64,000 nt of DNA, taken from the IMG/VR virus record IMGVR_UViG_3300010998_001290; one strand, given 5' to 3'. The notes under the pieces are model-generated. The model had not been told where the DNA came from, ran no database searches, and saw only the letters and a program-made list of their open reading frames with translations. The translations under genes and the position numbers were made by a program. Positions 11,952 to 63,965 of the stretch are shown here, piece after piece (the stretch's first letter is position 1; each line of letters begins with the position of its first letter). This DNA comes from a virus (lineage: Duplodnaviria > Heunggongvirae > Uroviricota > Caudoviricetes).

Positions 11952-12003
11952 TTAACATTAAGCCTTCCGTTTGGAGGGCTTTTTGTTTTTGCAACTACTC
12001 TGT

Positions 12004-19153: not shown

Positions 19154-19468
19154 ATGATCAAAACAATTGACAATGTGAATGTCACCATCAATGGCGATGA
19201 TACCATGTCTGACGAGGAAGTAAAGGCTTACATCGACCGTGGTCGCGAGCAGAAGAAGCATATGAAGCTTCTCGAAATCGAGGTTACAGTAGACGGCGAT
19301 GAAGTTGACCTCAAGTACAGATATGAAGATCAGCCTTTTGAACGCATCCGCAGAATAACGGGTTATCTGGTCGGAACACTTGACCGCTTTAACAACGCAA
19401 AACGCGCTGAGGTCAACGACAGAGTAAAGCATACTATTCAGGATGACTGCGAGGACGTTTACATCTAA
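19154..19468 (+). CDS. hypothetical protein
   Basis: AAAGGAAAGG RBS. Preceded by a CATACTA plus GACGAATGGAG cassette. Confidence 0.6.
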   Translation: MIKTIDNVNVTINGDDTMSDEEVKAYIDRGREQKKHMKLLEIEVTVDGDEVDLKYRYEDQPFERIRRITGYLVGTLDRFNNAKRAEVNDRVKHTIQDDCEDVYI

Positions 19469-25156: not shown

Positions 25157-25750
25157 GTGTATAAATCGTGGGTACAGACACCTATAGGATATGAATTATA
25201 TGCTCAAGGACAGTACGAACGTGAATTTCTGGCATTTATGTATGGAGGTGTGTACGACGGCTGGTTTTTCTATATCCCATACCATTCCGATAAAGAGATA
25301 CTCCTTAAGGCGGGTAGCCTTAAAGAAGCTAAACGGGAAGTAGAACAGCGGATGCAGAGAAATATCCTGAATGAAAGAAACAGATACGAACATTATATAA
25401 ACGAGACATCAAGCCGTTACGGGTGGCTTGAATACAACGACGACTCCTATGAATTAAAGGTTAAGTCCCCGGAGAAGGAAATGGTAACAGCCGCAAGGGT
25501 CGAAAAGGACGAATGGTACGGCTATAAGTACAGCACATTGTTCGAACCTTGCTTTACCCGTCATGTTCTGCTTTTACACACGGATGTTCAGAGATTGGCA
25601 ATTGACAGTATAAAGGAATACGGCGAGCGTCAAATAGATATATGCGAAATGCTTATCCTTATGCTCGAAGAAGAAGCTCCGGTAAAAAATATTGTGTACG
25701 AACAGCAAAAACACTGCCAAATAGGAAATAAAAAGTCATACTATGTATAA
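25157..25750 (+). CDS. hypothetical protein; start uncertain
   Basis: The GTG at 25157 sits only 1-2 nt after GGTGAGGG. No better in-frame start was found. Follows a CATACTA promoter. Confidence 0.45.
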   Translation: MYKSWVQTPIGYELYAQGQYEREFLAFMYGGVYDGWFFYIPYHSDKEILLKAGSLKEAKREVEQRMQRNILNERNRYEHYINETSSRYGWLEYNDDSYELKVKSPEKEMVTAARVEKDEWYGYKYSTLFEPCFTRHVLLLHTDVQRLAIDSIKEYGERQIDICEMLILMLEEEAPVKNIVYEQQKHCQIGNKKSYYV

Positions 25751-25840
25751 AAAGAGAGAAAGAGGTGGGTCCAATGGCTCATTGAGATGTCAAAAAAACA
25801 AGAAACCTGCGTAATGATGCAAGGTTTTGAAGCTTAAGTA

Positions 25841-26690: not shown

Positions 26691-26697
26691 CATACTA
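26691..26697 (+). promoter_or_regulatory. CATACTAATAGT promoter element upstream of the ABC transporter genes
   Basis: After the terminator at 26652-26686. Confidence 0.55.
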
Positions 26698-28770: not shown

Positions 28771-30462
28771 ATGATGAAATTACCGGATAATTACTATCCA
28801 ATACCGGAAGAGCTGGCTTTTAAAATGGCTCAGAAGGCATTTAAGAACTACAAACCCGGCGATACTGCTTATGTCCTTGAGCCGTCCGCCGGAACAGGAG
28901 ACATGATTAAGGGTATTGAGAAGTTCTCAGACAGGCAGCATCCATATTGTTGCCGATATGACATTGACTGCATCGAGATCAACCCTGAGCTTGCCGCTAT
29001 ACTTAAGGAAAGATACTGTGAGTATGGCGAAGAACGGGTGAGAGTTGTGTATGACGATTTTCTTACATTTAAGACAGATAAGGTCTATACACACATACTG
29101 ATGAACCCGCCATTTGATGAAGGAGAAAAACATCTGCTGAAAGCTCTTGACATCTTGAAGAACGGCGGGGTCGTTGTGTGTCTCTTGAATGCTGAAACAT
29201 TAAGAAATCCGTACACAAACACAAGAAAAGAGTTGACAGATCGTCTTCTTGAGCTCGGCGCTGATATCGAGTATATCGAGCACGCCTTTTCTGAAGCGGA
29301 GCGTCCGACTGATGTTGAGGTAGCAATGATTACAGTAACGATAGAGTCAAAGCCTTATACAAGCTTCTTCTTTGATGATATGAAGAACTATAGGGATGAA
29401 GACGAGCCTATAGACGAGAATGTTACGGACATAATAGAAGGCTCCGGAACTATCAGAGCAGCAATTGTTTCCTACCGCAACGAGTTAATTCTCGGAAAGC
29501 GCTTCATAAGAGAGTATTATGGACTTCGGAAGTACATACCTGTAAATTTCTGTTCTTCCGATGCAGAAGAGTGGGAGAAAGAAATGTCAAGTGCGCCTAT
29601 CATCGATATCAAAATTGATGGCAATGAGGCGATAAGAAGTACTTATCCTGAAATGCTCAACGCCTTTATAAAACTCCTTAGAAATAAGTATTGGAAAGAA
29701 TTCTTCAAGAACAAGGAGCTTACTGACAAGTTTACCTCAAATCTCATTAAGTCCTTCTCATCTCAGGTGGAACGGCTCGAAAATTACGATTTTAATGAGC
29801 ATAACATAGCCGAGATACGCAATCAAATGATCAATCAACTTACCAAAGGTGTTGAAGATGCGGTCATAGGGATATTCGACAAGCTCTCAGCCCAGCATTC
29901 GTGGTTTCCGGAATGCAGCAAGAATATTCATTATTACAATGGATGGGCATCCAATAAAGCACACAAGATAAACGATAAGGTAGTGCTGCCTACGGAGAGC
30001 AGATACGGCGGGTCGAGTTGGATCTATACAGATAGCTGGCGCAATGAAGCCTTTGATGTGTACGAAGCGTACGGAATGTTGTCAAATATCGAAAAGGTTT
30101 GCTCTTATTTCTGCGTAGAAGGAAAATCTTACCTTGACTTAAGTACACAGCTTTCGATTGCATCTAAGAGAATGATCACGAAGAACATTGAGTGCCGCTA
30201 CTTTGATATCACAATCTATAAGAAAGGAACTGTACATATCAAGTTCACCTCAAAAGAGGCTCTTGAAGCACTCAATATTTACGGCTCAAAGATGAAAGGT
30301 TGGCTTCCTCCGAGTTATGGAAAGAAGCACTACAAGGATATGAATGAAGATGAAAGAATAGTAATTGACGCTTTTCAGGGAGAAGAAGCCTATGAAAAGG
30401 AGCTGGCTGACCCTAAGGGCGTTATCGGAGCAGGAAACGGTGCAATAGCATTGTTATCATAA
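28771..30462 (+). CDS. N6-adenine (amino-) DNA methyltransferase, second orphan MTase, with a C-terminal extension of unknown function
   Basis: Motif I 'YVLEPSAGTGDM' and motif IV 'ILMNPPFDEGEKH'. AAAGGAA RBS. Confidence 0.75.
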   Translation: MMKLPDNYYPIPEELAFKMAQKAFKNYKPGDTAYVLEPSAGTGDMIKGIEKFSDRQHPYCCRYDIDCIEINPELAAILKERYCEYGEERVRVVYDDFLTFKTDKVYTHILMNPPFDEGEKHLLKALDILKNGGVVVCLLNAETLRNPYTNTRKELTDRLLELGADIEYIEHAFSEAERPTDVEVAMITVTIESKPYTSFFFDDMKNYRDEDEPIDENVTDIIEGSGTIRAAIVSYRNELILGKRFIREYYGLRKYIPVNFCSSDAEEWEKEMSSAPIIDIKIDGNEAIRSTYPEMLNAFIKLLRNKYWKEFFKNKELTDKFTSNLIKSFSSQVERLENYDFNEHNIAEIRNQMINQLTKGVEDAVIGIFDKLSAQHSWFPECSKNIHYYNGWASNKAHKINDKVVLPTESRYGGSSWIYTDSWRNEAFDVYEAYGMLSNIEKVCSYFCVEGKSYLDLSTQLSIASKRMITKNIECRYFDITIYKKGTVHIKFTSKEALEALNIYGSKMKGWLPPSYGKKHYKDMNEDERIVIDAFQGEEAYEKELADPKGVIGAGNGAIALLS

Positions 30463-30487
30463 TTAAAAATAATGAAAGGAAAATGAT

Positions 30488-30691
30488 ATGAAGAAGGTAT
30501 TTTTAGTGTGGGCGAGCAACGAGGAAACAGAACCTATGCTTTTCGCCGTAACAAGCACAAAAGAAAAAGCAGAAGCTGCTATCCGTAAGTCTGTAGAAGT
30601 ATTTGAGGAAGGCGAAAGTAACCTTGATTACGATATAGACGAAGTATCACTTGACACAATCAACATAAACGATACAGAATATGAACTGTAA
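30488..30691 (+). CDS. hypothetical small acidic protein
   Basis: AAAGGAAAA RBS. Confidence 0.5.
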   Translation: MKKVFLVWASNEETEPMLFAVTSTKEKAEAAIRKSVEVFEEGESNLDYDIDEVSLDTININDTEYEL

Positions 30692-30715
30692 ACACAAACA
30701 GAAAGGTGATGTAAT

Positions 30716-31000
30716 ATGACAAAAACTCAATTTCCTATCTATGTAAGGGATAAAGATTACGATAAGACCGGCTGGAAAAACACTTCCGAAGCTATACTCT
30801 GGGATCCGTGGACAGACCAAGCGAATTGGGATCCAAACGATAAAAACTGGAGAAAGTTTCACTCAAGCAAAATACCTGAATATATATATAAGATGCTTGA
30901 AGAAAAAGTTATCTCGCGTTACGGTACAATTATTACCGACGTAAAAGTCTATGCAGAGATAAATGAAGCGTGTCGCGCACTGTATGTGACAGTATCGTGA
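30716..31000 (+). CDS. hypothetical protein
   Basis: AAAGGTGATG RBS region. Confidence 0.5.
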   Translation: MTKTQFPIYVRDKDYDKTGWKNTSEAILWDPWTDQANWDPNDKNWRKFHSSKIPEYIYKMLEEKVISRYGTIITDVKVYAEINEACRALYVTVS

Positions 31001-31123
31001 ACTACATGGCATTTGAATTGCCGAGGATTCCCGCCCGGAAATTGCAACTGAGGCAAATATTATAATTCTCATTCTTAAGGAAAGCTCACAGAAATGTGGG
31101 CTTTTTCTTATTTGAAAATAGGC

Positions 31124-31220: not shown

Positions 31221-32807
31221 ATGCCAGATTTTGAAGTAAATCCCGCAATCGTAATCGGTGTAATCGCGGTTATAGTGGTAGCAATCATTATTTCGCTTGG
31301 TTACATCAAGGTCCCACCCGACAAGGCTTATATCATCACAGGTATAAAGCGTCGTAGGGTAATCGGAAAAGCAACGATAAGGATCCCATTCCTTGAGCGT
31401 CTCGACAAACTCAACCTTGCCGCTATGCAGGTCGATGTTGTCACAAGGACACCGGTTCCTACCGCCGACTACATCAACATAAGGGTAGACTCCGTAGTCA
31501 ATATCAAGATACCAACTGAAGATATTGTACTGGAACACCTCAATGAAAACGGCGAAGCAGTAACAGTGACCTATCCGGCTGATAAATGTCTTGAGAAGGC
31601 TCAGCAGAACTTCCTTAACAGAGACCAGCAGTACATCGTAAAGATAGCATCTGAGGTGCTTGAAGGTAATGTCCGCGAGATTATCGGACAGATGAAGCTC
31701 GAAGAAATGGTATCCAACCGTCAGAGATTCGCGGAGCTTGTAAGGCAGAATGCTGCGCCTGACCTTGCTGAACTCGGTTTGTCGATAGTGTCGTTCAATG
31801 TCCAGAACTTCTCTGATGACAACAATATTATCACCGATATGGGTATCGACAATACTATGCAGATCAAGAAGAGAGCGGCTATATCCAAGGCACAGGCTGA
31901 AAGAGATATATCTATAGCTCAGTCCGAAGCAAACAGGGAGTCGAACGACGCTCAGGTCAACTCCGAAACAGCTATCGCAGAACGCCAGAACGAACTGGCT
32001 ATCAAACAGGCAGAGCTTAAGAAACTCTCTGACATCAAGAAGGCGGAATCCGATGCAGCTTATAAGATTCAGGAAGAAGAGCAGAGAAAGACCATAGAAA
32101 TCACAGCTGCGAACGCTAACCTTGCAAAGCAGGAGAAGGAAGTCGAGATAAAAGCTAAGGAAGCTCAGGTAAGAGAACAGGCGCTTGAGGCTGAGGTCAA
32201 GAAGACGGCTGAAGCTGAAAAGTATGCGGCACAGCAGAGAGCGGACGCAGAACTGTACACAACCGCTAAGAAGGCAGAGGCTGACCTTATAAGAACCCAG
32301 AAGGCAGCGGAAGCAAAGAAAGCGGAAGCAGAAGCGGCAAGGTTTGCGGCTGAACAGGAAGCTGAAGGTATCAAAGCAAAGGGTCTCGCGGATGCAGAGG
32401 CTATCAAGGCGGCGGCATTGGCTGAGGCTGAAGGTCTCGACAGAAAAGCAGAGGCTATGCTTAAGATGCAGCAGGCGGCGGTACTTCAGATGTACTTTGA
32501 TAAGCTGCCCGATATTGCAAAGGCTGTGGCTGAACCTCTTTCTAAGACAGATAAGATCATTATGTACGGCGAAGGCAACTCTTCTAAGCTGGTAGGAGAC
32601 ATCACAAAGTCAATAAGCCAGATAAACGAAGGTATGCTCGAAGGCACAGGTATAAGCTTACAGAGTCTGCTGAACGCTTTCGTATCGGGTAAGGCGGCAG
32701 GTACGGCTGTAGCCAATGCTGTACAGAGCAGCGGCGAGACGAAGAGTGCATCTGTGGCAGACGAAGCTGATACAAGTGGCGTATACGAAGCTACGGAAGA
32801 AGAATAA
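31221..32807 (+). CDS. flotillin-like SPFH/band-7 domain membrane protein
   Basis: N-terminal TM helix, SPFH core 'YIITGIKRRRVIGKATIRIPFLERLDKLNLAAMQVDV', long Ala/Glu coiled coil typical of flotillins (FloT/YqiK). AAAGGAGGG RBS. Confidence 0.8.
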   Translation: MPDFEVNPAIVIGVIAVIVVAIIISLGYIKVPPDKAYIITGIKRRRVIGKATIRIPFLERLDKLNLAAMQVDVVTRTPVPTADYINIRVDSVVNIKIPTEDIVLEHLNENGEAVTVTYPADKCLEKAQQNFLNRDQQYIVKIASEVLEGNVREIIGQMKLEEMVSNRQRFAELVRQNAAPDLAELGLSIVSFNVQNFSDDNNIITDMGIDNTMQIKKRAAISKAQAERDISIAQSEANRESNDAQVNSETAIAERQNELAIKQAELKKLSDIKKAESDAAYKIQEEEQRKTIEITAANANLAKQEKEVEIKAKEAQVREQALEAEVKKTAEAEKYAAQQRADAELYTTAKKAEADLIRTQKAAEAKKAEAEAARFAAEQEAEGIKAKGLADAEAIKAAALAEAEGLDRKAEAMLKMQQAAVLQMYFDKLPDIAKAVAEPLSKTDKIIMYGEGNSSKLVGDITKSISQINEGMLEGTGISLQSLLNAFVSGKAAGTAVANAVQSSGETKSASVADEADTSGVYEATEEE

Positions 32808-32857
32808 GATGTAAAAGCAATGGCAGACGGCGGTAAGATTTTTCCGATTCCAGCAAT

Positions 32858-32864
32858 CATACTA
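32858..32864 (+). promoter_or_regulatory. CATACTAATAGT promoter element followed 45 nt later by a strong terminator (small-RNA candidate)
   Basis: No ORF lies between the promoter and the terminator at 32908-32950. Confidence 0.5.
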
Positions 32865-32907
32865 ATAGTGTAGAATTTCTTACTGCCATTGGAAATTATA
32901 CATATAA

Positions 32908-32950
32908 AACGGGGTTTCTCTGAAGAGGGGACCCCGTTTTTGTTTTTGCA
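32908..32950 (+). terminator. intrinsic terminator
   Basis: AACGGGGT-ttctctgaagagggg-ACCCCGTT plus TTTTGTTTTT. Confidence 0.7.
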
Positions 32951-32960
32951 CTTACTCTGT

Positions 32961-32997
32961 CATACTATCTACAGATATAAATTTTTGACGAATGGAG
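32961..32997 (+). promoter_or_regulatory. TGtCATACTA plus GACGAATGGAG cassette
   Basis: After the terminator at 32908-32950. Upstream of 33114. Confidence 0.6.
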
Positions 32998-33113
32998 CTA
33001 TTCCTAATGTGCATTTGCGCAGAGATAGTTTTGAAGTTCGTCTATTTTTATGTCTAAATAGTACGACTGCCGTGTGCAGTAAAACACATTTAACATAAAA
33101 AGGAGTAATCACT

Positions 33114-33479
33114 ATGACAAACGTAAGAACTACCACCGACACAATGACCAAGAACACTCTCAGACTGCTCGCTAACCTCGCAGCATCTGATGCTCAGTCC
33201 GCTGAGATGAGACAGAAGAAGATGAACGCTCGTTCTTTCTTCCGTACTCTCGGCAAGCGTGTATGGCTTCAGGACGTAATTGAGTCCGAATCCCGTACAT
33301 CCCGCGACGTTGAACGTAAGGACTCCGCTAAGCGTAGCCTTAAGTTCTGCGAATCTCAGCTTAGCGCTGCGTGCTTCGCATACTGCCTCCCCAAGGACTA
33401 CAATATCCTTGATGACGCTGTATGGGACCTTTTTGGCTGCCATGCCGATACATTTGCTAATCGCATAGGCTGCCGTTAA
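33114..33479 (+). CDS. hypothetical protein with strongly biased, high-expression-type codon usage
   Basis: AAAGGAG RBS. Arg is CGT, Ser TCC, Leu CTC throughout, unlike neighbouring genes. Confidence 0.6.
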   Translation: MTNVRTTTDTMTKNTLRLLANLAASDAQSAEMRQKKMNARSFFRTLGKRVWLQDVIESESRTSRDVERKDSAKRSLKFCESQLSAACFAYCLPKDYNILDDAVWDLFGCHADTFANRIGCR

Positions 33480-33591
33480 TTTTCACCATTGCCATTGGTG
33501 AATTCTTTCCTCCGTTATTGATGTCCTGCGTAAATGCAGGAGAACTCTCCGTTCCGTGTGAATGGAGAGTTTTCTTTTTTGCGCACAAATT

Positions 33592-33641
33592 CTGTGTACG
33601 AAAGACATAAGTTTCGAGTTTTCCGCTTAGGCAATCATACT
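33592..33641 (+). promoter_or_regulatory. TGTGTACGAAAGACATAAGTTT upstream box, 21 nt, CATACTA
   Basis: After the terminator at 33544-33580. Confidence 0.6.
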
Positions 33642-33794
33642 ATTATTAGATATACGGGGCGACTCGACGTCCTTGGAACGATGAAGTACCTATCAATCAT
33701 AGGCAACTCTCGTTAAGGTTAATCCTTCCATAATATTCCGGGAGGCGCTTGTTGAAGTGCGAGAGTTTTCATGTTTGTTTGCGAAGAGGTGCTT

Positions 33795-51817: not shown

Positions 51818-52003
51818 ATGGCACTGATATGTAAAATCTGCGGTTATAAGCAGAGTGATGATGATACCGTAGAGTATTTCAAGAAGAAATTTTCCGGCAG
51901 GGAAGAGTACGATATACCGTACTACTGCGGTGCGTGTCTCAATAATATGTCGAATGATGAATATGACGCTGCAACAGACGAAATGTATGTTGTCAAGCAG
52001 TAA
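51818..52003 (+). CDS. small zinc-ribbon protein
   Basis: AAAGGAATAAAG RBS. 'CKICGYK...CGACLNN'. Confidence 0.5.
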   Translation: MALICKICGYKQSDDDTVEYFKKKFSGREEYDIPYYCGACLNNMSNDEYDAATDEMYVVKQ

Positions 52004-52023
52004 GAAGAAAGGAAGGAAATAAT

Positions 52024-55600: not shown

Positions 55601-55927
55601 ATGGATAACAGATGTTTTTATTACGCACCGGACAGTGAATATTCAGGGAAGGATACTTACCGTATAGAGTGCCGCATAGTAATCTATCGTCAGAAATTCG
55701 GCAAACATCCTGATTTTCTGAAAGATTACGAGGGTAACAAACACGGCGAAGGGTACAACACTAAATTTTTCTTCCTTATTGAAGACGGCATACCGGATGA
55801 AGACACCGCTAAGACAAAGGTCGATAAGTATAATAAAGACTATGCAGACATTATTTCGAAGTGCGAGAACAGCGGTGAATGGGATGATTTCCCGTTCAAG
55901 TCCAGTATGATCACCTACTATAAATAA
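55601..55927 (+). CDS. hypothetical protein
   Basis: AAAGGAAGAG RBS before ATG 55601. Confidence 0.5.
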   Translation: MDNRCFYYAPDSEYSGKDTYRIECRIVIYRQKFGKHPDFLKDYEGNKHGEGYNTKFFFLIEDGIPDEDTAKTKVDKYNKDYADIISKCENSGEWDDFPFKSSMITYYK

Positions 55928-55939
55928 GGAGGCGTTCCA

Positions 55940-56362
55940 GTGAGTATATCTATAAGTTGCAAGAAGACAGGACGCGATATAACCGTGGACACAGGTGGTT
56001 TTTTACGCTTAAGAAGGGATATTGCGCTTTACTGCTACAAAGAGTGGGGAGAGCATTACACTGAATTAATGTCATTTCCTTTGCTTAAAGGTAAGGAGTG
56101 GTATAAAGCCTTTGACCGCAAAACGCTGGAACTGATAAACAGACGTAAGGTAAGCAAAAAATTTGTATATTTTTGTTTGCAGCCTGATGCAGGCGGTTCA
56201 ATTGCTCCGGGAACTTGTAAAATGATATATGACAGAATAAAGGATTATGACAACGATGCTATATACGGGTATCATGGTAAACCTAATCCTTGCAAGCTGT
56301 GCGATTTCAAGAAAATATTGAAAGAATGCATAGACACGAAATCAAGGCTGGAGTGGTGGTAA
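55940..56362 (+). CDS. hypothetical protein (GTG start)
   Basis: GGAGG RBS 7 nt before GTG 55940. Confidence 0.5.
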   Translation: MSISISCKKTGRDITVDTGGFLRLRRDIALYCYKEWGEHYTELMSFPLLKGKEWYKAFDRKTLELINRRKVSKKFVYFCLQPDAGGSIAPGTCKMIYDRIKDYDNDAIYGYHGKPNPCKLCDFKKILKECIDTKSRLEWW

Positions 56363-56363
56363 T

Positions 56364-56427
56364 ATTTAAACTACCTTTAAATGGGCTTTAAATGGTCTTT
56401 AAATAGCATTAAAATCATTTTAAAACG
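56364..56427 (+). repeat. array of five TTTAAA-core direct repeats, three as tandem CTTTAAATRG units
   Basis: 'atatTTAAActacCTTTAAAtgggCTTTAAAtggtCTTTAAAtagc...TTTAAAacg' in the 78-nt gap before 56440. Confidence 0.6.
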
Positions 56428-56439
56428 AGGAGGATAAAT

Positions 56440-56634
56440 ATGAGAGTAAAGTATGTACACGCATCCGACCCTAACAAGGTGAAGGTTTATGATATAGAGG
56501 AAGCATACAAGAAATGCCCTTTCTTGGATCCTTTAAACCGTCCGACGTTGGATGACTGGACGAGAAGGGAGCTTGATTATTTCGCTTCCGATAAGAAGAA
56601 AGGTATAATACTCACATACGAGATATGCGAATAA
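56440..56634 (+). CDS. hypothetical small protein downstream of a CTTTAAAT direct-repeat array
   Basis: GAGGAGG RBS. Confidence 0.5.
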   Translation: MRVKYVHASDPNKVKVYDIEEAYKKCPFLDPLNRPTLDDWTRRELDYFASDKKKGIILTYEICE

Positions 56635-56655
56635 TAACTGAAAGGAAAAGATGAT

Positions 56656-57069
56656 ATGAGTAACATTAGTCTCGAAGAGAAGAAAAGGGAAGCTGTAAGC
56701 AGGATGAAATCTATGAAGATGTTCCCTGAGGTTATAAAGCAGTTTTCCGAAGATGGGCTCGTAATGAAGACCGAAGGCTACTTAGGCGGCTGCTACTATC
56801 TTAACGATGAGCAGAAGAAGAGGGTCTCGGACTTCGAGAACAAGCATAATGCCCTTGTGTACCACGTCATTATGGCGCATACAACTGACGGGATAATGGA
56901 AAGCTACGTCTATGTAAGTGACAACAAGAAAGATTGGGCATCTGACCGTGATGATATTAACAACCGGCGGTTGTTTACTTATACTTATGTGTACGACGAC
57001 CCTATCTGCTCTGAATTTGGCACTATCGGATACAAGCTTTCACCCGGCGCGGGGCTTCAGAGATTGTAA
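56656..57069 (+). CDS. hypothetical protein
   Basis: AAAGGAAAAG RBS. Confidence 0.55.
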   Translation: MSNISLEEKKREAVSRMKSMKMFPEVIKQFSEDGLVMKTEGYLGGCYYLNDEQKKRVSDFENKHNALVYHVIMAHTTDGIMESYVYVSDNKKDWASDRDDINNRRLFTYTYVYDDPICSEFGTIGYKLSPGAGLQRL

Positions 57070-57110
57070 ATTACCCAACAATAACTATATAATGAAAAAG
57101 GAGTAAAAAT

Positions 57111-57800
57111 ATGATTTACAGAGAGACTATCGTAGTGGATAAGAATACCGCAGATTTCATCAACAACGCTCTTAACATCGAGCCTGATTGCGAGAGCAAC
57201 TGCTTTGGCGAAGACGAGAAGATCTCGTACACAGCTACTTTCAGCAACGGATTTCAGGCTGATATCGAGTGCATCGGCGTACAGTACGACGAGGGCGGCT
57301 GCAATACCGCTTGGACACAGGCTGTTCTTTTCAATCCGGATGGCGGTGAGGTCAATTGTTCAGCTCCCGACAGCTCTTTCTTTGATGAGTGGTGGCTTAC
57401 GGATAGTGATGGGAATGAGTACTATATCAATGTCGTAACCGACAACGATAACGACGGAGATACCGACGACGGCGATGATGATGCTGAGTTCATCACGAAG
57501 AACCGTAACCGTGCCGAAAGAAGACGCGCAAGACGGAACAGTATAGCTCGCAGGTCGAGAGAAACTGTTGAAAAGTGTCGTGTCGGCAACCCTGAGATAC
57601 TTGAGGATCTCGGAGAACGCAGAGTAGGACAGCTGGCGAAGGGTTCTTGGATCCACAGCAGCGTAGCTTATGATTGGGACTTCTTCGGCGTAGGTCGTCT
57701 TCTCAGATATAAGCCTTCTACTATGCGGAGACTTGACAAGGCTCGTTATGCTATGTCTGACTATTCTGCATATGCCGAGGATGACAAGGAGGCAGTATAA
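57111..57800 (+). CDS. hypothetical protein with an acidic 'DNDNDGDTDDGDDD' stretch followed by an Arg-rich stretch
   Basis: AAAGGAG RBS. Confidence 0.55.
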   Translation: MIYRETIVVDKNTADFINNALNIEPDCESNCFGEDEKISYTATFSNGFQADIECIGVQYDEGGCNTAWTQAVLFNPDGGEVNCSAPDSSFFDEWWLTDSDGNEYYINVVTDNDNDGDTDDGDDDAEFITKNRNRAERRRARRNSIARRSRETVEKCRVGNPEILEDLGERRVGQLAKGSWIHSSVAYDWDFFGVGRLLRYKPSTMRRLDKARYAMSDYSAYAEDDKEAV

Positions 57801-58389: not shown

Positions 58390-58597
58390 AATCATACTAT
58401 CTATAGAAACGTAAGATAATTACTTGCATCGGGCTGGCTCGACAGCCTTGTAGTGACGTAGTGGCAGCTATACGCTGTTAACTCTCACTAAGGTAAATCC
58501 CGCAATAGTATTCCTGCGGGCGCTTATAGTAGTGCGAGACCGCACACCCGGAGTTATGATAAGGCGACATCGAATGTGAGATGAAATAGGAGGTTCT

Positions 58598-59280: not shown

Positions 59281-60966
59281 ATGAAATGGACGAAGCGTGA
59301 CGCTTCTACCACCATTGATGAAGTAGTGAAGCGTAACGTGGGCGGTGAACTCTCCGATATAACGGAGGAGACACCGATAGTTAACTTAGACAAGGCAGTA
59401 AACCGTATTGCCGATGCAATATCAGCAAAAGAAAAGATCACTATATTCGGAGATTACGATGTCGATGGAGTGACCTCTTCTTCTATCCTTTGGACGACAA
59501 TCAACGTATTAAGCGGTGTTGCGCCCAATATCAGGCTTCCGAGACGCTTTTCAGAGGGCTTTGGGTTTTCACTTAAGGCTGCCGATGAAATCAGCGAGGG
59601 ACTTCTGATAACTGTTGATAACGGAATAGCCGCAGTCGAGGCGATAAAAGCTGTCAAAGCTAAGGGAGTAGATGTTCTTGTAATAGACCATCATCTTCCC
59701 GGCGAGACAATGCCTGATGCGGACATAATCGTGGATCCTCACTGTTTTAAGGCTAATCCCGATGATTTCGAGGATTGGTGCGGTGCGGGTCTTGCTTATC
59801 GTATATGCAAAGAGCTGATCGAGAAAACGGATAATGACAGGCTTAAGAAAGGCACCTTGTCTTATATTATCCAGCTTGCTGCACTTGGTACGATATGTGA
59901 TGTTATGCCTCTCGTGAAGGATAACAGAGCGATTGTGATATCCGGACTTGATGCGGTAAACACAAAGCCTTGCAGAGGGTTAAAAGCTATATGCGAGCTC
60001 ACTGAGACCGAGGTGGTAGATGAAACTACCTGTGGCTTTTTAATAGGTCCAACTATTAATGCCGCCGGTAGAATGAAGGATGACGGAGCTATGATGGCAT
60101 TCGATGTTATAACAGCTTGTAACAGAGCAGGTGCCGGACAGCTTTCGCAAACAGCCAAAGAACTTATCGAGCTTAACGAATTGAGGAAGGCTAAGGTAAG
60201 TTCAGCTACAGAAACAGCAAAGGAAATCATATCCAATGAGTGCTTATACGGCAATTATCCTCTGGTAATTGCGTCTGATGAGATAAGTGAGGGCATCGTC
60301 GGTATAGTAGCAGGAAAGCTTGCCGAAGAGTATCATGTCCCCACTATAGTTCTCGCTAAGACAGATGATGGGCTGTATAAGGGTAGTGCCAGAAGCTATG
60401 GCGATGTAAATGTCAAGGCTATGATGGATGCGGCAAGTGACTGCATCGTAAAGTATGGCGGACATGAAGGAGCCGGAGGACTTACGGTAGCACCTGAGCG
60501 CTTAGACGATATGTACGACAAAATGAATGAGTATCTGGGAGATTACGAGTTCAAAACAACGGACGAACTGTTTTATGACCTTGAAATCGAGGCAGCCGAT
60601 ATGGAAAGCGCTATACAGGAGCTTAAGAAGTATAAGCCCTTTGGTGAAGGTAATGCGCCTATTGTTTTCAAGATAAAGAAGTTCGGCTTATCTCCCCGCG
60701 CAGGAGCTTTCTATAAGCTTATGGGAAAGAATAACGAACACGTTAAGCTGTTTGGGAACGGCTTTTCAGCCATAGGCTTTAACCTTGCAAATAAATTAAA
60801 CGATGAGAGCAAGGAAATTACATGTGTAGGAACACTGTCGGAAAACAGTTTCAGAGGCAAAACCGAAATTCAGGTCGAAATGGCTGATTTCGAGTATGTT
60901 TATGGGACTAATGAAACACAGCTTACCCGCCTTCTTCGCGAACGGCTTAGAGGAATGGGTATATGA
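59281..60966 (+). CDS. recJ: RecJ-like single-stranded-DNA exonuclease (DHH/DHHA1 phosphoesterase)
   Basis: DHH motifs 'FGDYDVDG', 'TVDNG', 'VIDHHLP'. DHHA1 'GGHEGAGG' motif. 561 aa. Confidence 0.8.
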   Translation: MKWTKRDASTTIDEVVKRNVGGELSDITEETPIVNLDKAVNRIADAISAKEKITIFGDYDVDGVTSSSILWTTINVLSGVAPNIRLPRRFSEGFGFSLKAADEISEGLLITVDNGIAAVEAIKAVKAKGVDVLVIDHHLPGETMPDADIIVDPHCFKANPDDFEDWCGAGLAYRICKELIEKTDNDRLKKGTLSYIIQLAALGTICDVMPLVKDNRAIVISGLDAVNTKPCRGLKAICELTETEVVDETTCGFLIGPTINAAGRMKDDGAMMAFDVITACNRAGAGQLSQTAKELIELNELRKAKVSSATETAKEIISNECLYGNYPLVIASDEISEGIVGIVAGKLAEEYHVPTIVLAKTDDGLYKGSARSYGDVNVKAMMDAASDCIVKYGGHEGAGGLTVAPERLDDMYDKMNEYLGDYEFKTTDELFYDLEIEAADMESAIQELKKYKPFGEGNAPIVFKIKKFGLSPRAGAFYKLMGKNNEHVKLFGNGFSAIGFNLANKLNDESKEITCVGTLSENSFRGKTEIQVEMADFEYVYGTNETQLTRLLRERLRGMGI

Positions 60967-61993: not shown

Positions 61994-62800
61994 ATGTCCT
62001 ATAAAAAAGCATTATCAGCGGTTCTTATTGCAGCTGTATTGTGTCTTGGTTCCTGCTCCGAGGAAGAAGCGGCTCTTCAAAAGTATGTAGAGACACAGCC
62101 AAAGGAAACAACAGCGGCAATCACTGTTGAAACAGAAGTTCCTTTCAACGCATTGGGCGTGTATGTGGAAACAGAGGAAGAAGAACCGATTATTATAGAT
62201 TATGAATCATACAGAATGAGACCTACTCCGAATTGTATTAAGGTGTCTCATATCATCGATTACACACAGCAGGAAGGCTACGAGGGAACACAAAGGCAGG
62301 ACTGCAATTTTACTAATCTGTGTGTAAAGTTCAACGGCATAACGCTGAACTCTGCTACAGAGGAAGAGTTTGAAAGATTTATCCATTCGAGCGGATATTT
62401 TGTAAGATTTAAGGAAGATGCTGAGACCGGGATAAAAGAGTATGTACTTAAGTCCGGCACTGTCACTTTCTGCAACGGTATGCTCCAACATTTTGACGCT
62501 TTTGGCAATATCCAGATAAATGGGTATGCGATAGGCGACAGAATAGAGAGACTGAACAGTATAGGAAAGTTCAACTTCGAGGAAGATGGTCTTGAATATA
62601 TACTTTTGTTTGACCCTCTGAATAGCGCTACGATAAGGCTTGGCATCTCTGAGGGGGCTATATCGAGTATTGAATTCAATGTTGTCGCATCTGAAATCGA
62701 GAGGCTGTATAATTCTCTTGAAGATATCGGGTACGCTCCGATCATCACGATTTCAGAGCCAGAACCCCATCAGAATCCGACTGATAATACTTTACATTAA
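61994..62800 (+). CDS. lipoprotein
   Basis: Signal peptide with lipobox 'LGSC'. GGGGAGAG RBS. Confidence 0.65.
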   Translation: MSYKKALSAVLIAAVLCLGSCSEEEAALQKYVETQPKETTAAITVETEVPFNALGVYVETEEEEPIIIDYESYRMRPTPNCIKVSHIIDYTQQEGYEGTQRQDCNFTNLCVKFNGITLNSATEEEFERFIHSSGYFVRFKEDAETGIKEYVLKSGTVTFCNGMLQHFDAFGNIQINGYAIGDRIERLNSIGKFNFEEDGLEYILLFDPLNSATIRLGISEGAISSIEFNVVASEIERLYNSLEDIGYAPIITISEPEPHQNPTDNTLH

Positions 62801-63965
62801 CGGTATAAGTATTGGAACGACCAAAAGCGGATACAGTGACAGTAGCCCTACCCGGCTTTAACCCGTATACAACTCCGAATTCATCTATGGAAATAATGTC
62901 TGTATCTTTTGTGGAATACTTGACCTGTGCTCCACACTTATATTCGGTACTTGCCATTGAAGTGACGAATGTACACTCATTTACACTAATATTCTTCTTG
63001 TAACTGGTAAGTTCAAGCTTTTTAGATGAGCCTAAGGAGCCGCATTTGCCCTCTGAAGTCACATACATGAGAGCGTACTTGTCTATTCCGAACCAAGAGA
63101 GCGGGGCATTAAGGTTGGTCGTGCGTCCGCTGATATATTTAGGCTCAAGCGAGAAGGCAAAGTCCGAGTTAAGCTTTGCGAGCGTACTTACAGCATTTGT
63201 TGCAGCGTCATACACACGTATTTCCTTTTTCCAGTCGAAGTATAACTTACCGTTGTTATCATATACGGTCGATGATGGACACCATCCATCAAACTCGTAC
63301 ACAAGTGTCGCAGATTTCTTCTGGAAATCGGATGAAACGGTGTAGATGCCATCGGGAGTATATGCGTACCATTGTTTGTTGAATTCGAAGAACCTTATTC
63401 CTTTTGCGGATACATAAGGAGATTCGGCTTCAACTGTAGGAAGTTCTTTATTATAAGCGGCATTATCGCCGCCCCTTAAGAAATGTCCTCCATCACAGTC
63501 AATTTCATACCACTTTCCGTTTACATTGACCACATTTATGCTGTGATGGCTTATATATGAGCCATTTATGCCGGAGCCTGTGACAGATTTAGACTCGATT
63601 CCTACAGCATCACACACTTCGTTGAAGGTATCCGAGAAGTTATTACAGTCGCTGCAACCTCTGAAAAGGATCCCAAATGTGCCATTTTCGTTGCCGGTAT
63701 GTCTTCCTTGATTGCTTATATATGAGTAAATATAAGCGATTTTCTGCTCAACAGTCCATTCGGGATTGATATTGTTGGTTATCCGCTTTATTACTTCTTT
63801 GTTCACCATGTTCAGTATCGACTTGGACTGACCTATTGAATACTCGGACTTATAGCTTTCAAGCATCTGCTTGTCATAATTATAAGCACGAGCATTGACG
63901 GTGAGCGAGAAAGCGGCAAGGATGGATAAAATAACAGATATTACTTTTTTCATAAAGACCTCCAA
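62745..63965 (-). CDS. secreted transglutaminase-like cysteine-protease-domain protein with a C-terminal Big_2 Ig-like domain
   Basis: Signal peptide 'KKVISVILSILAAFSLTVNARA'. Transglutaminase core 'GCSDCNNFSDTF..CDAVGI...YISHHSINVVNVNGKWYEIDCD'. Big_2-like 'GLKPGRATVTVSAFG'. Its own CATACTA promoter is on the minus strand. Confidence 0.7.
   Translation of the reverse strand: MEVFMKKVISVILSILAAFSLTVNARAYNYDKQMLESYKSEYSIGQSKSILNMVNKEVIKRITNNINPEWTVEQKIAYIYSYISNQGRHTGNENGTFGILFRGCSDCNNFSDTFNEVCDAVGIESKSVTGSGINGSYISHHSINVVNVNGKWYEIDCDGGHFLRGGDNAAYNKELPTVEAESPYVSAKGIRFFEFNKQWYAYTPDGIYTVSSDFQKKSATLVYEFDGWCPSSTVYDNNGKLYFDWKKEIRVYDAATNAVSTLAKLNSDFAFSLEPKYISGRTTNLNAPLSWFGIDKYALMYVTSEGKCGSLGSSKKLELTSYKKNISVNECTFVTSMASTEYKCGAQVKYSTKDTDIISIDEFGVVYGLKPGRATVTVSAFGRSNTYTVNVKYYQSDSDGVLALKS

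Follow-up and report, generated by a model that had tools for sequence, protein, structure and literature searches.

The oop RNA of phage lambda, 77 nt long, runs from the promoter pO to an intrinsic terminator and is antisense to the 3' end of cII. In the pR'-tR' region of lambda, a promoter and a terminated 6S RNA without an open reading frame (ORF) lie upstream of co-directional genes that are subject to Q antitermination, and type III toxin-antitoxin loci (toxIN) are arranged as promoter, antitoxin RNA, terminator, and toxin gene. Small RNAs (sRNAs) that are made at the 3' ends of genes from promoters of their own and that use the parental terminator form an established class that includes DapZ and ArgX (PMC9438474). 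We analyzed a 64,000-nt stretch of DNA, IMG/VR record IMGVR_UViG_3300010998_001290 (referred to as the window), in which an initial annotation had marked positions 32858 to 32950 as a promoter-to-terminator unit without an ORF. The unit consists of a promoter, referred to as P1, a 36-nt noncoding body, and a predicted intrinsic terminator, and it is situated between a flotillin gene and a gene that starts at 33114 (gene 33114) behind a second promoter, P2. From this anatomy, we think it probable that a short transcript is made from P1. Our leading explanation, held at somewhat less than even confidence, is that a primary transcript of ~77 nt, made from its own promoter and ended by the terminator of the upstream mRNA, acts as a riboregulator. 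The unit is a candidate for a known kind of feature, with ordinary anatomy, in an uncharted replicon.

Promoter, body, and terminator of the candidate RNA

The consensus promoter element that had been reported at 32858 is indeed present, reading CATACTAATAGT at 32858 to 32869 on the plus strand. The window contains five exact copies of this 12-mer (5830, 11168, 18814, 26691, and 32858), all of them on the plus strand, against a calculated chance expectation of ~0.008. At P1 the match extends to a 17-mer, GCAATCATACTAATAGT (32853 to 32869), which is shared with 26686, and 16-mers are shared with 5827, 11164, and 18810; all four of the other promoters with a core identical to that of P1 drive protein-coding genes. 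A weight matrix was built from 28 gene-proximal promoters, scored leave-one-out, and applied to both strands of the window (128 kb). By this matrix, the P1 core scores 19.6 and ranks 10th of 30. At this score, no intragenic sites and no false positives appear, and the sole other untrained position scoring at or above the P1 core is 63987 on the minus strand, which is evidently a real promoter. It is a full-consensus CATACTA promoter located 22 nt upstream of the start of the only minus-strand gene in the window (62745 to 63965, transglutaminase-like), which supports the specificity of the matrix. P1 also carries aATCATACTAaTAgT at the fixed distance from the transcribed region that defines the CATACTA class of this replicon. 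Taken together, k-mer identity, matrix score, and conservation suggest that P1, with a T-tract at 32839 to 32843 and its core at 32853 to 32869, is best read as a working promoter of the replicon's own consensus type. If CATACT is taken as the -10 hexamer, sigma-70 geometry would place the transcription start at G32870.

RNA polymerase would then start at about G32870, transcribe 36 noncoding bases (32870 to 32905), and be released at the intrinsic terminator (32906 to 32947), giving an RNA that spans 32870 to about 32946. The predicted product of ~75 to 78 nt would comprise a 5' stem-loop (32870 to 32901) showing the 10-nt loop UACUGCCAUU (32881 to 32890), a short AU-rich linker, and the terminator hairpin with its U-tail. 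The claim of a strong terminator behind the promoter is borne out by folding and by terminator scans. The hairpin at 32906 to 32940 is followed by UGUUUUUG, with the U-tract UUUUUGUUUUU at 32937 to 32947, and its stem of 14 to 16 bp, including 6 G-C pairs, has the features of an intrinsic terminator. The hairpin folds at -19.7 kcal/mol (z = -3.7) and is among the strongest terminator-like sites in the window, and for the whole 79-nt RNA, the folding energy is -26.2 kcal/mol (z = -4.15).

As the initial annotation had stated, no start codon or ribosome-binding site lies between promoter and terminator: neither ATG nor GTG nor a Shine-Dalgarno sequence is found in 32870 to 32905. The sole mechanical ORF, which begins at a TTG and extends from 32889 to 33098, crosses both the terminator and P2, and indels (insertions or deletions) of +1 or +2 nt shift its frame in every relative. 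The window is gene-dense, has a G+C content of 42.5%, and carries all genes but one on the plus strand. Here the same order is repeated: one or more genes, a G+C-rich hairpin with a T-tract, a CATACTA promoter-like element, and the next gene or genes. CATACTA occurs 30 times on the plus strand and 5 times on the minus strand of the 64-kb window, and each plus-strand copy precedes an ORF except the copy at 19430, which lies within an ORF, and the 32858 site. Of about 30 promoters, P1 alone leads to a terminator with no ORF in between. A promoter core like those that drive genes, a strong and conserved terminator, the absence of coding capacity, uniqueness in the window, and conservation (see below) together make a discrete RNA of ~75 to 78 nt the best reading of the unit.

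The gene upstream of the unit (31221 to 32807, plus strand) encodes a 528-amino-acid (aa) protein of the SPFH/flotillin family (Pfam Band_7, E = 9e-19). Terminator scans identified none between the flotillin stop (32807) and 32906, and the hairpin at 32906 to 32940 would therefore also end the flotillin mRNA. The distance from stop to terminator is 99 nt at this gene, compared with 4 to 38 nt in about four-fifths of the other units, which places P1 and the body inside the flotillin 3' untranslated region (3'UTR). The initial annotation overlooked this apparently common terminator. Its proposal of a ~75-nt small RNA is supported in part: the anatomy that it described is correct, and the unit is unique in the window and shows evidence of purifying selection, but an Rfam family and an above-chance target were not found in our searches. 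The layout appears to be that of a 3'-end sRNA with its own promoter and not that of a free-standing gene, and the short RNA could be produced independently of flotillin transcription.

Two further sequence matches touch the unit. On the minus strand at 32895 to 32924, a sigma-70-like TTCAGA-18-TATAAT match (10/12) lies within the terminator loop and body and faces the flotillin 3' end; it is probably due to chance, as the regional count of such matches equals that in shuffles. In L043 (1310 to 1341) and L063 (a Selenomonadaceae sheep metagenome-assembled genome [MAG]; metagenome contig Ga0310697_10206056), ATTTTTCCGAT is joined straight to TCTTACTGCCATTGGAAAT within a chromosomal membrane-protein gene. 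These two sequences flank the P1 core in the window, and 28 nt with the promoter core are missing in L043 and L063. Though statistically odd, this junction is probably a chance match.

Conservation and alternative explanations

Three haplotypes cover the locus, namely, A (the window, L023, and L035), B (L027 to L034), and C (L036), and A and B were compared in full. Haplotype B is 91.3% identical to the window over 16 kb. Between A and B, 31% of 4-fold degenerate sites differ overall, with 34% in the flotillin gene, 22% in gene 33114, and 17% in the first 45 codons of 33114. By comparison, none of the 52 positions from 32845 to 32896 differs, and in the RNA body, there is 1 difference in 36 positions. 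At P1, 32845 to 32869 is invariant between the two, and haplotype B differs at 32839 (an indel) and at 32844. The spacer from the stop codon to the promoter is the least conserved stretch locally (7/38 positions differ). Conservation of the body exceeds that expected at the pooled synonymous rate (binomial P = 2e-5) and at the 17% local rate (P of about 0.01, hand calculation), and it also exceeds that of the spacer (Fisher's test, P = 0.03).

Across all three haplotypes, 2 of the 36 body positions are variable (32875 and 32897), and the A>G change at 32875 in haplotype C keeps a G-U pair in the 5' hairpin. Haplotype C also carries G>A at 32868, which turns P1 into the CATACTAATAAT variant used by the promoters at 1625 and 54521. 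The terminator differs at 3 to 5 positions between haplotypes, and these changes either create G-U pairs or close a bulge. All four terminator versions (the three haplotypes and the L023 variant of A) fold at -19.7 to -23.8 kcal/mol, and the substitutions that give G-U pairs are consistent with an RNA hairpin formed from the plus strand. A recombination tract was rejected as the cause of the conservation, since divergence at 4-fold sites is still 17% over the first 45 codons of 33114. Overall, the haplotype comparison indicates that promoter, body, and terminator are under purifying selection.

Such constraint on promoter, body, and terminator makes a functionless relic unlikely. P1 might nevertheless be an orphan promoter that fires, or once fired, to give a functionless RNA as a by-product of cassette shuffling, in which a terminator-P2 cassette was inserted between P1 and its former gene or that gene was deleted. 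Shuffling of this kind would fit the recurrence of near-identical terminator-promoter cassettes (32937 to 32960 matches 11980 to 12003 at 22/24 positions) and the indel polymorphism of whole small genes 2 kb upstream (30430 to 31057 is absent in L023, L029, and L033), and a functionless RNA would fit the failure of the window duplex scan and the Rfam search to find either a target or a family. However, the body is far more conserved than neighboring synonymous sites and the adjacent spacer, the arrangement is kept in 3/3 haplotypes, and the body has no paralogue or gene remnant in the rest of the window or in the loci. We regard this account of P1 as unlikely.

A different possibility is raised by the promoter of the downstream gene. 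The initial annotation had assigned a second promoter at 32961 to gene 33114, and the assignment holds up well: P2 is a well-scoring plus-strand cassette (32940 to 32997; core, 19.0; upstream, 16.6) with TTGTTT at 32940 to 32945, CATACTA at 32961, and the leader motif GACGAATGGAG at 32987 to 32997, followed by a leader of ~140 nt, AAAGGAG, and the ATG at 33114. P1 could be a regulated tandem promoter that serves 33114 (and beyond) and stops at the terminator unless an antiterminator is present, as in lambda pR'-tR', where the 6S RNA is a by-product. The order of promoter, short ORF-less transcript, terminator, and co-directional genes is as this would predict, read-through control is made plausible by the many terminators between co-directional units, and P1 and P2 fall in different promoter subclasses, which could mean different timing. 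Yet P2 lies between the terminator and 33114, so P1 is not needed, and the hairpin to be overcome is among the strongest in the window. By inspection, no competitor for either terminator arm is seen in the P1 transcript, which is also without the GACGAAUGGAG leader motif. The other four promoters with the identical core drive genes directly, and read-through control does not require conservation of all 36 body bases. A tandem promoter is therefore, in our judgment, an improbable explanation.

The flotillin mRNA itself offers a third alternative. Upstream of the predicted start, and hence confined to the flotillin 3'UTR, is arm A of an inverted repeat, CAATGGCAG[acggcg]GTAAGA (32818 to 32838, plus strand), which is the interrupted complement of 32878 to 32891 (TCTTACTGCCATTG). 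This repeat could be a 3'UTR stability or processing stem, with the promoter in its loop being only secondary or insulating. The arms comprise 14 to 15 complementary bases with a 6-nt bulge and are paired in the centroid folds of both haplotypes A and B, and the A-B differences fall in the bulge and flanks, sparing the arms. Against such a stem, the fold of the flotillin 3'UTR minus the terminator is not significantly better than shuffles (z = -1.15 and -1.74), the arms show no compensatory change, and the part of the 3'UTR ahead of P1 is, for the most part, less conserved than any other sequence nearby (7/38). Perfect conservation of a full-consensus promoter core would also be left unexplained, and we consider it quite unlikely that the conserved element belongs to the flotillin mRNA alone.

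The same pairing has a place in the riboregulator that we favor. If real, it would mask the invariant segment UCUUACUGCCAUUG in the long flotillin mRNA, and this segment would be freed from its upstream complement (32818 to 32838) only in the short P1 transcript. More speculatively, riboregulation would then proceed through the exposed invariant segment, either by pairing with an mRNA that is encoded outside the window (by the host or by the replicon's other ~240 to 340 kb) or by protein binding.

Several observations weigh against a riboregulator made from P1. The upstream T-tract of P1 is shifted 1 nt out of register relative to the TTTTT at -18 to -14, with an upstream score of 4.8, and P1 is without the -42 element TGTGTACGAAAGACA; upstream scores as low as or below this are found at 26691, 28697, 6578, and 25737, all of which precede ORFs. 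The 5' hairpin is weak (-6.0 kcal/mol; z of about -2), and the T>G change at 32897 in haplotypes B and C opens one of its pairs. An Rfam covariance search of the whole window returned no matches at the gathering threshold, and the best local matches had E values of about 1 (0.9 or above) and 14 to 21 bits against thresholds of 47 to 58. Target prediction against the element, which had been suggested with the initial annotation, gave no plus-strand target in the window better than shuffled controls: the duplex scan of the whole plus strand reached -24.3 kcal/mol at best, compared with a median of -24.7 kcal/mol in 40 shuffles, with nothing above chance. Exact 9- to 10-nt complements of the RNA occur in the window in roughly chance numbers, and the notable ones of at least 9 nt are at 51997 to 52006 (beside the ribosome-binding site of gene 52024), 25742 to 25750, 25770 to 25778, and the cis site 32818 to 32826. 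Pairing of the RNA 5' end with codons 4 to 8 of 33114 was rejected, as the complement is lost in haplotype C. Constraint is also not specific to a trans-acting RNA, as all intergenic sequence from P1 to 33114 is highly conserved (in the 5'UTR of 33114, 32951 to 33113, 159/163 positions are identical between A and B). Finally, the comparison is limited to three shallow haplotypes, which do not provide a real covariation test of the 5' hairpin, and no more distant relative carrying the locus was found. The IMG/VR homologues of the flotillin and the P0002 loci, which are 71% identical, are parts of other elements, in which the CATACTA grammar is not present.

Other assignments of the unit were also considered and rejected. 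An attenuator or riboswitch leader of 33114 does not fit an A+U-rich body without a complement to either terminator arm, with P2 between the terminator and the gene. A solitary mimic of a clustered regularly interspaced short palindromic repeat (CRISPR) was dismissed because the 18-mer TCTTACTGCCATTGGAAA from the body returned nothing beyond chance, with only single, mostly intragenic exact matches in 56 genome and metagenome loci and no arrays. A replication origin or primer RNA was rejected as well, the GC skew showing no inflection.

Gene 33114, leader motifs, and the replicon

Gene 33114 (33114 to 33479, plus strand) encodes a 121-aa protein without a recognizable family. Searches of Pfam, PHROGs, NCBIfam, and PADLOC gave zero matches, no relative was found in IMG/VR, and the protein database holds just one homologous cluster. 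Its AlphaFold model is helical and of low confidence (predicted local distance difference test score, 59.5) and was judged too poor for a fold search. In the mRNA of 33114, 13 nt of the 5'UTR (33010 to 33022) are complementary, with one G-U pair, to 33526 to 33538 in the 3'UTR on the plus strand; in haplotype C, an A>G change leaves this pairing intact as G-U, and the 3' partner also takes part in a local hairpin. The terminator of 33114 (33540 to 33574, plus strand) has an invariant 3' arm, GAAUGGAGAG, which equals the leader-motif core, and its 5' arm varies by haplotype with pairing kept (CUCUCCGUUC versus CUCUCUAUUC).

The initial annotation had also noted that the GCCAUUGG core of the RNA is repeated after 33114 and had taken this as a hint of a shared protein-binding site. 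The recurrence is real: TGCCATTGG recurs at 33490 to 33498 within a plus-strand 3'UTR hairpin directly after the stop of 33114 (33482 to 33502) that has (U)UGCCAU in its loop. The proposed site fares less well. The 8-mer GCCATTGG has 3 copies in the window, with ~1 per strand expected, so that recurrence alone is within chance, and the second copy varies, reading ACCATTGG in haplotype B; by haplotype, the loop is UUGCCAU, UUACCAU, or ACUGCCAUUG. A shared site is kept weakly alive by the position of both GCCATTGG copies in predicted hairpin loops, by a compensatory A-U to G-C change in the 33482-to-33502 stem in haplotype C, and by the haplotype C loop ACUGCCAUUG, which matches the RNA body over 11 nt.

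Two subclasses can be told apart among the promoters of the window. In the first, the T-tract of the preceding terminator (TTTTTGTTTTT) gives a TTGTTT element 17 nt upstream of TACTAT, often with GACGAATGGAG 24 to 28 nt further downstream; in the second, TGTGTACGAAAGACA lies at exactly 42 to 43 nt upstream of CATACTA. A scan of the window placed this (T)GTGTACGAAAGACA element at six plus-strand promoters (5788, 15979, 25694, 31125, 33594, and 58350), and its fixed spacing suggests an activator binding site or an alternative promoter-recognition element. Neither this combined pattern nor the promoter-pair pattern was found in viral, genome, and metagenome collections, and a literature search on the CATACTA promoter element returned nothing relevant.

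The leaders carry a motif of their own. The 11-nt motif GA(C/T)GA(A/T/C)(T/C)GGAG occurs 14 times on the plus strand (551, 1650, 16048, 19100, 20760, 28722, 32987, 35184, 37927, 43744, 47668, 48258, 54546, and 59235) and not at all on the minus strand, always 24 to 28 nt past CATACTA, or about 13 to 17 nt into the transcript; most copies fall at the tip of a predicted 5' hairpin. We rejected a rigid hairpin enclosing the GACGAAUGGAG motif (anchored pair count, 62.5% versus 59.2% in column shuffles, with 76/500 shuffles as high). The CATACTA...GACGAATGGAG arrangement is also found, singly, in unrelated IMG/VR contigs (L008 to L022), and the motif could be a protein-binding or antitermination signal. 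This raises a more far-reaching idea about the 77-nt RNA, namely, that it is a replicon-wide riboregulator that contacts GACGAAUGGAG leaders loop to loop, or competes for a common RNA-binding or antitermination factor, and in this way tunes the promoter class of a 300- to 400-kb replicon. The loop UACUGCCAUU and the 33482-to-33502 loop both show UGCCAU(UGG) and have 11 nt in common in haplotype C; the CCAUU within them is the complement of AAUGG, the core of the GACGAAUGGAG motif, and the motif lies 13 to 17 nt into at least 14 leaders of the window. We regard a role of this breadth as very unlikely.

About 700 nt downstream of the unit, we observed a structured leader RNA of ~119 nt, present in two paralogous copies in the window (33657 to 33775 and 58432 to 58550, plus strand) after the promoters at 33636 and 58393, respectively. 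With the haplotype B ortholog (L027, 8546 to 8664), the copies share 4 helices and 29 pairs, 13 of which have compensatory double changes. It matched nothing in Rfam, its conserved 21-mer matched nothing in IMG/VR, and neither the window nor 17 loci contained another copy. This RNA is a candidate new cis-regulatory leader, possibly riboswitch- or attenuator-like.

We treat the source of the window as a large, unclassified mobile replicon, either a megaplasmid or a jumbo phage, with a Ruminococcus-like host. The exact flotillin protein and its 121-aa neighbor are found in ruminant gut metagenomes, on contigs that range from 55 to 400 kb, and one cluster member comes from a Ruminococcus sp. MAG. 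Contigs bearing the locus reach 301 to 400 kb, hinting at a megaplasmid-like replicon. The proteins of the window are mostly orphans; recognizable families include DNA methyltransferases, a DnaG-type primase, a RecJ-like exonuclease, BspA-type leucine-rich repeat proteins, an Ltp-like lipoprotein, and an ABC transporter. For the RecJ-like DHH protein (59281 to 60966, plus strand), the best annotated relative, at 41% identity, is encoded at 55915 to 57576 of NC_014824.1, the 421-kb megaplasmid pRUMAL01 of Ruminococcus albus 7, on which the CATACTA promoter grammar was not found. No tRNA or transfer-messenger RNA match was obtained in the window. Gene content varies between otherwise similar contigs: at 30430 to 31057, 2 kb upstream of the unit, a 628-nt segment with two small ORFs (67 and 94 aa) is gone in L023, both ORFs are gone in L029 and L033, and other, similar contigs retain the two ORFs.

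If the RNA is transcribed, a replicon of the Ruminococcus type from the rumen, very large and with next to no annotation, would carry a small RNA under selection. With a predicted start at 32870 and an end at about 32946, the unit gives a precise handle on the stereotyped promoter-terminator grammar of this replicon. By itself the unit is a modest candidate, and the leader motifs and the covarying ~119-nt leader RNA may reward study more.

Comparison with known systems

Like lambda oop, the unit is short (about 77 nt), runs from a promoter to a terminator without an ORF, and belongs to a mobile element. Unlike oop, the candidate RNA is co-directional with both of its neighbors. A cis-antisense RNA of the kind represented by oop or by type I antitoxins was rejected because no credible gene lies on the opposite strand; the local minus-strand ORFs are situated within the flotillin gene or across P2 and have no promoters.

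The toxIN loci share with this locus the order of promoter, noncoding RNA, intrinsic terminator, and protein gene. The RNA here is without tandem repeats, however, and the downstream gene has its own promoter and encodes a 121-aa protein that is predicted to be helical and has no ToxN/Abi match. An antitoxin RNA of type III was rejected, with no direct repeats in 32870 to 32905 and no PADLOC or Pfam match for the 121-aa protein. Lambda pR'-tR' is alike in that a promoter and an ORF-less terminated transcript stand ahead of co-directional genes; it differs in that, at our locus, P2 lies between the terminator and the gene and conservation extends over the whole body. Neither a Q-like protein nor a Q-binding element or pause signal was identified.

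We liken the unit to Salmonella DapZ, Lactococcus lactis ArgX, and the Escherichia coli MicL precursor, in which a promoter at the end of or behind a coding gene makes use of the intrinsic terminator of that gene (PMC9438474). This layout is what we find, with P1 (32853 to 32869) behind the 3' end of the flotillin gene and a terminator in common at 32906. The size is also comparable (about 66 to 80 nt), and the candidate would likewise be a primary transcript that is independent of the upstream gene (PMC9438474). The candidate seed segment is invariant in the three haplotypes, and the search for its target, which gave none above shuffles, covered the window. The candidate differs from these sRNAs in that its promoter lies ~50 nt past the stop codon and not inside the ORF and in that it is carried by a mobile replicon of a Clostridia host, under the replicon's own CATACTA promoter. 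The unit allows us to ask if mobile elements of gut Clostridia use own-promoter 3'-end sRNAs as Proteobacteria and Lactococcus do.

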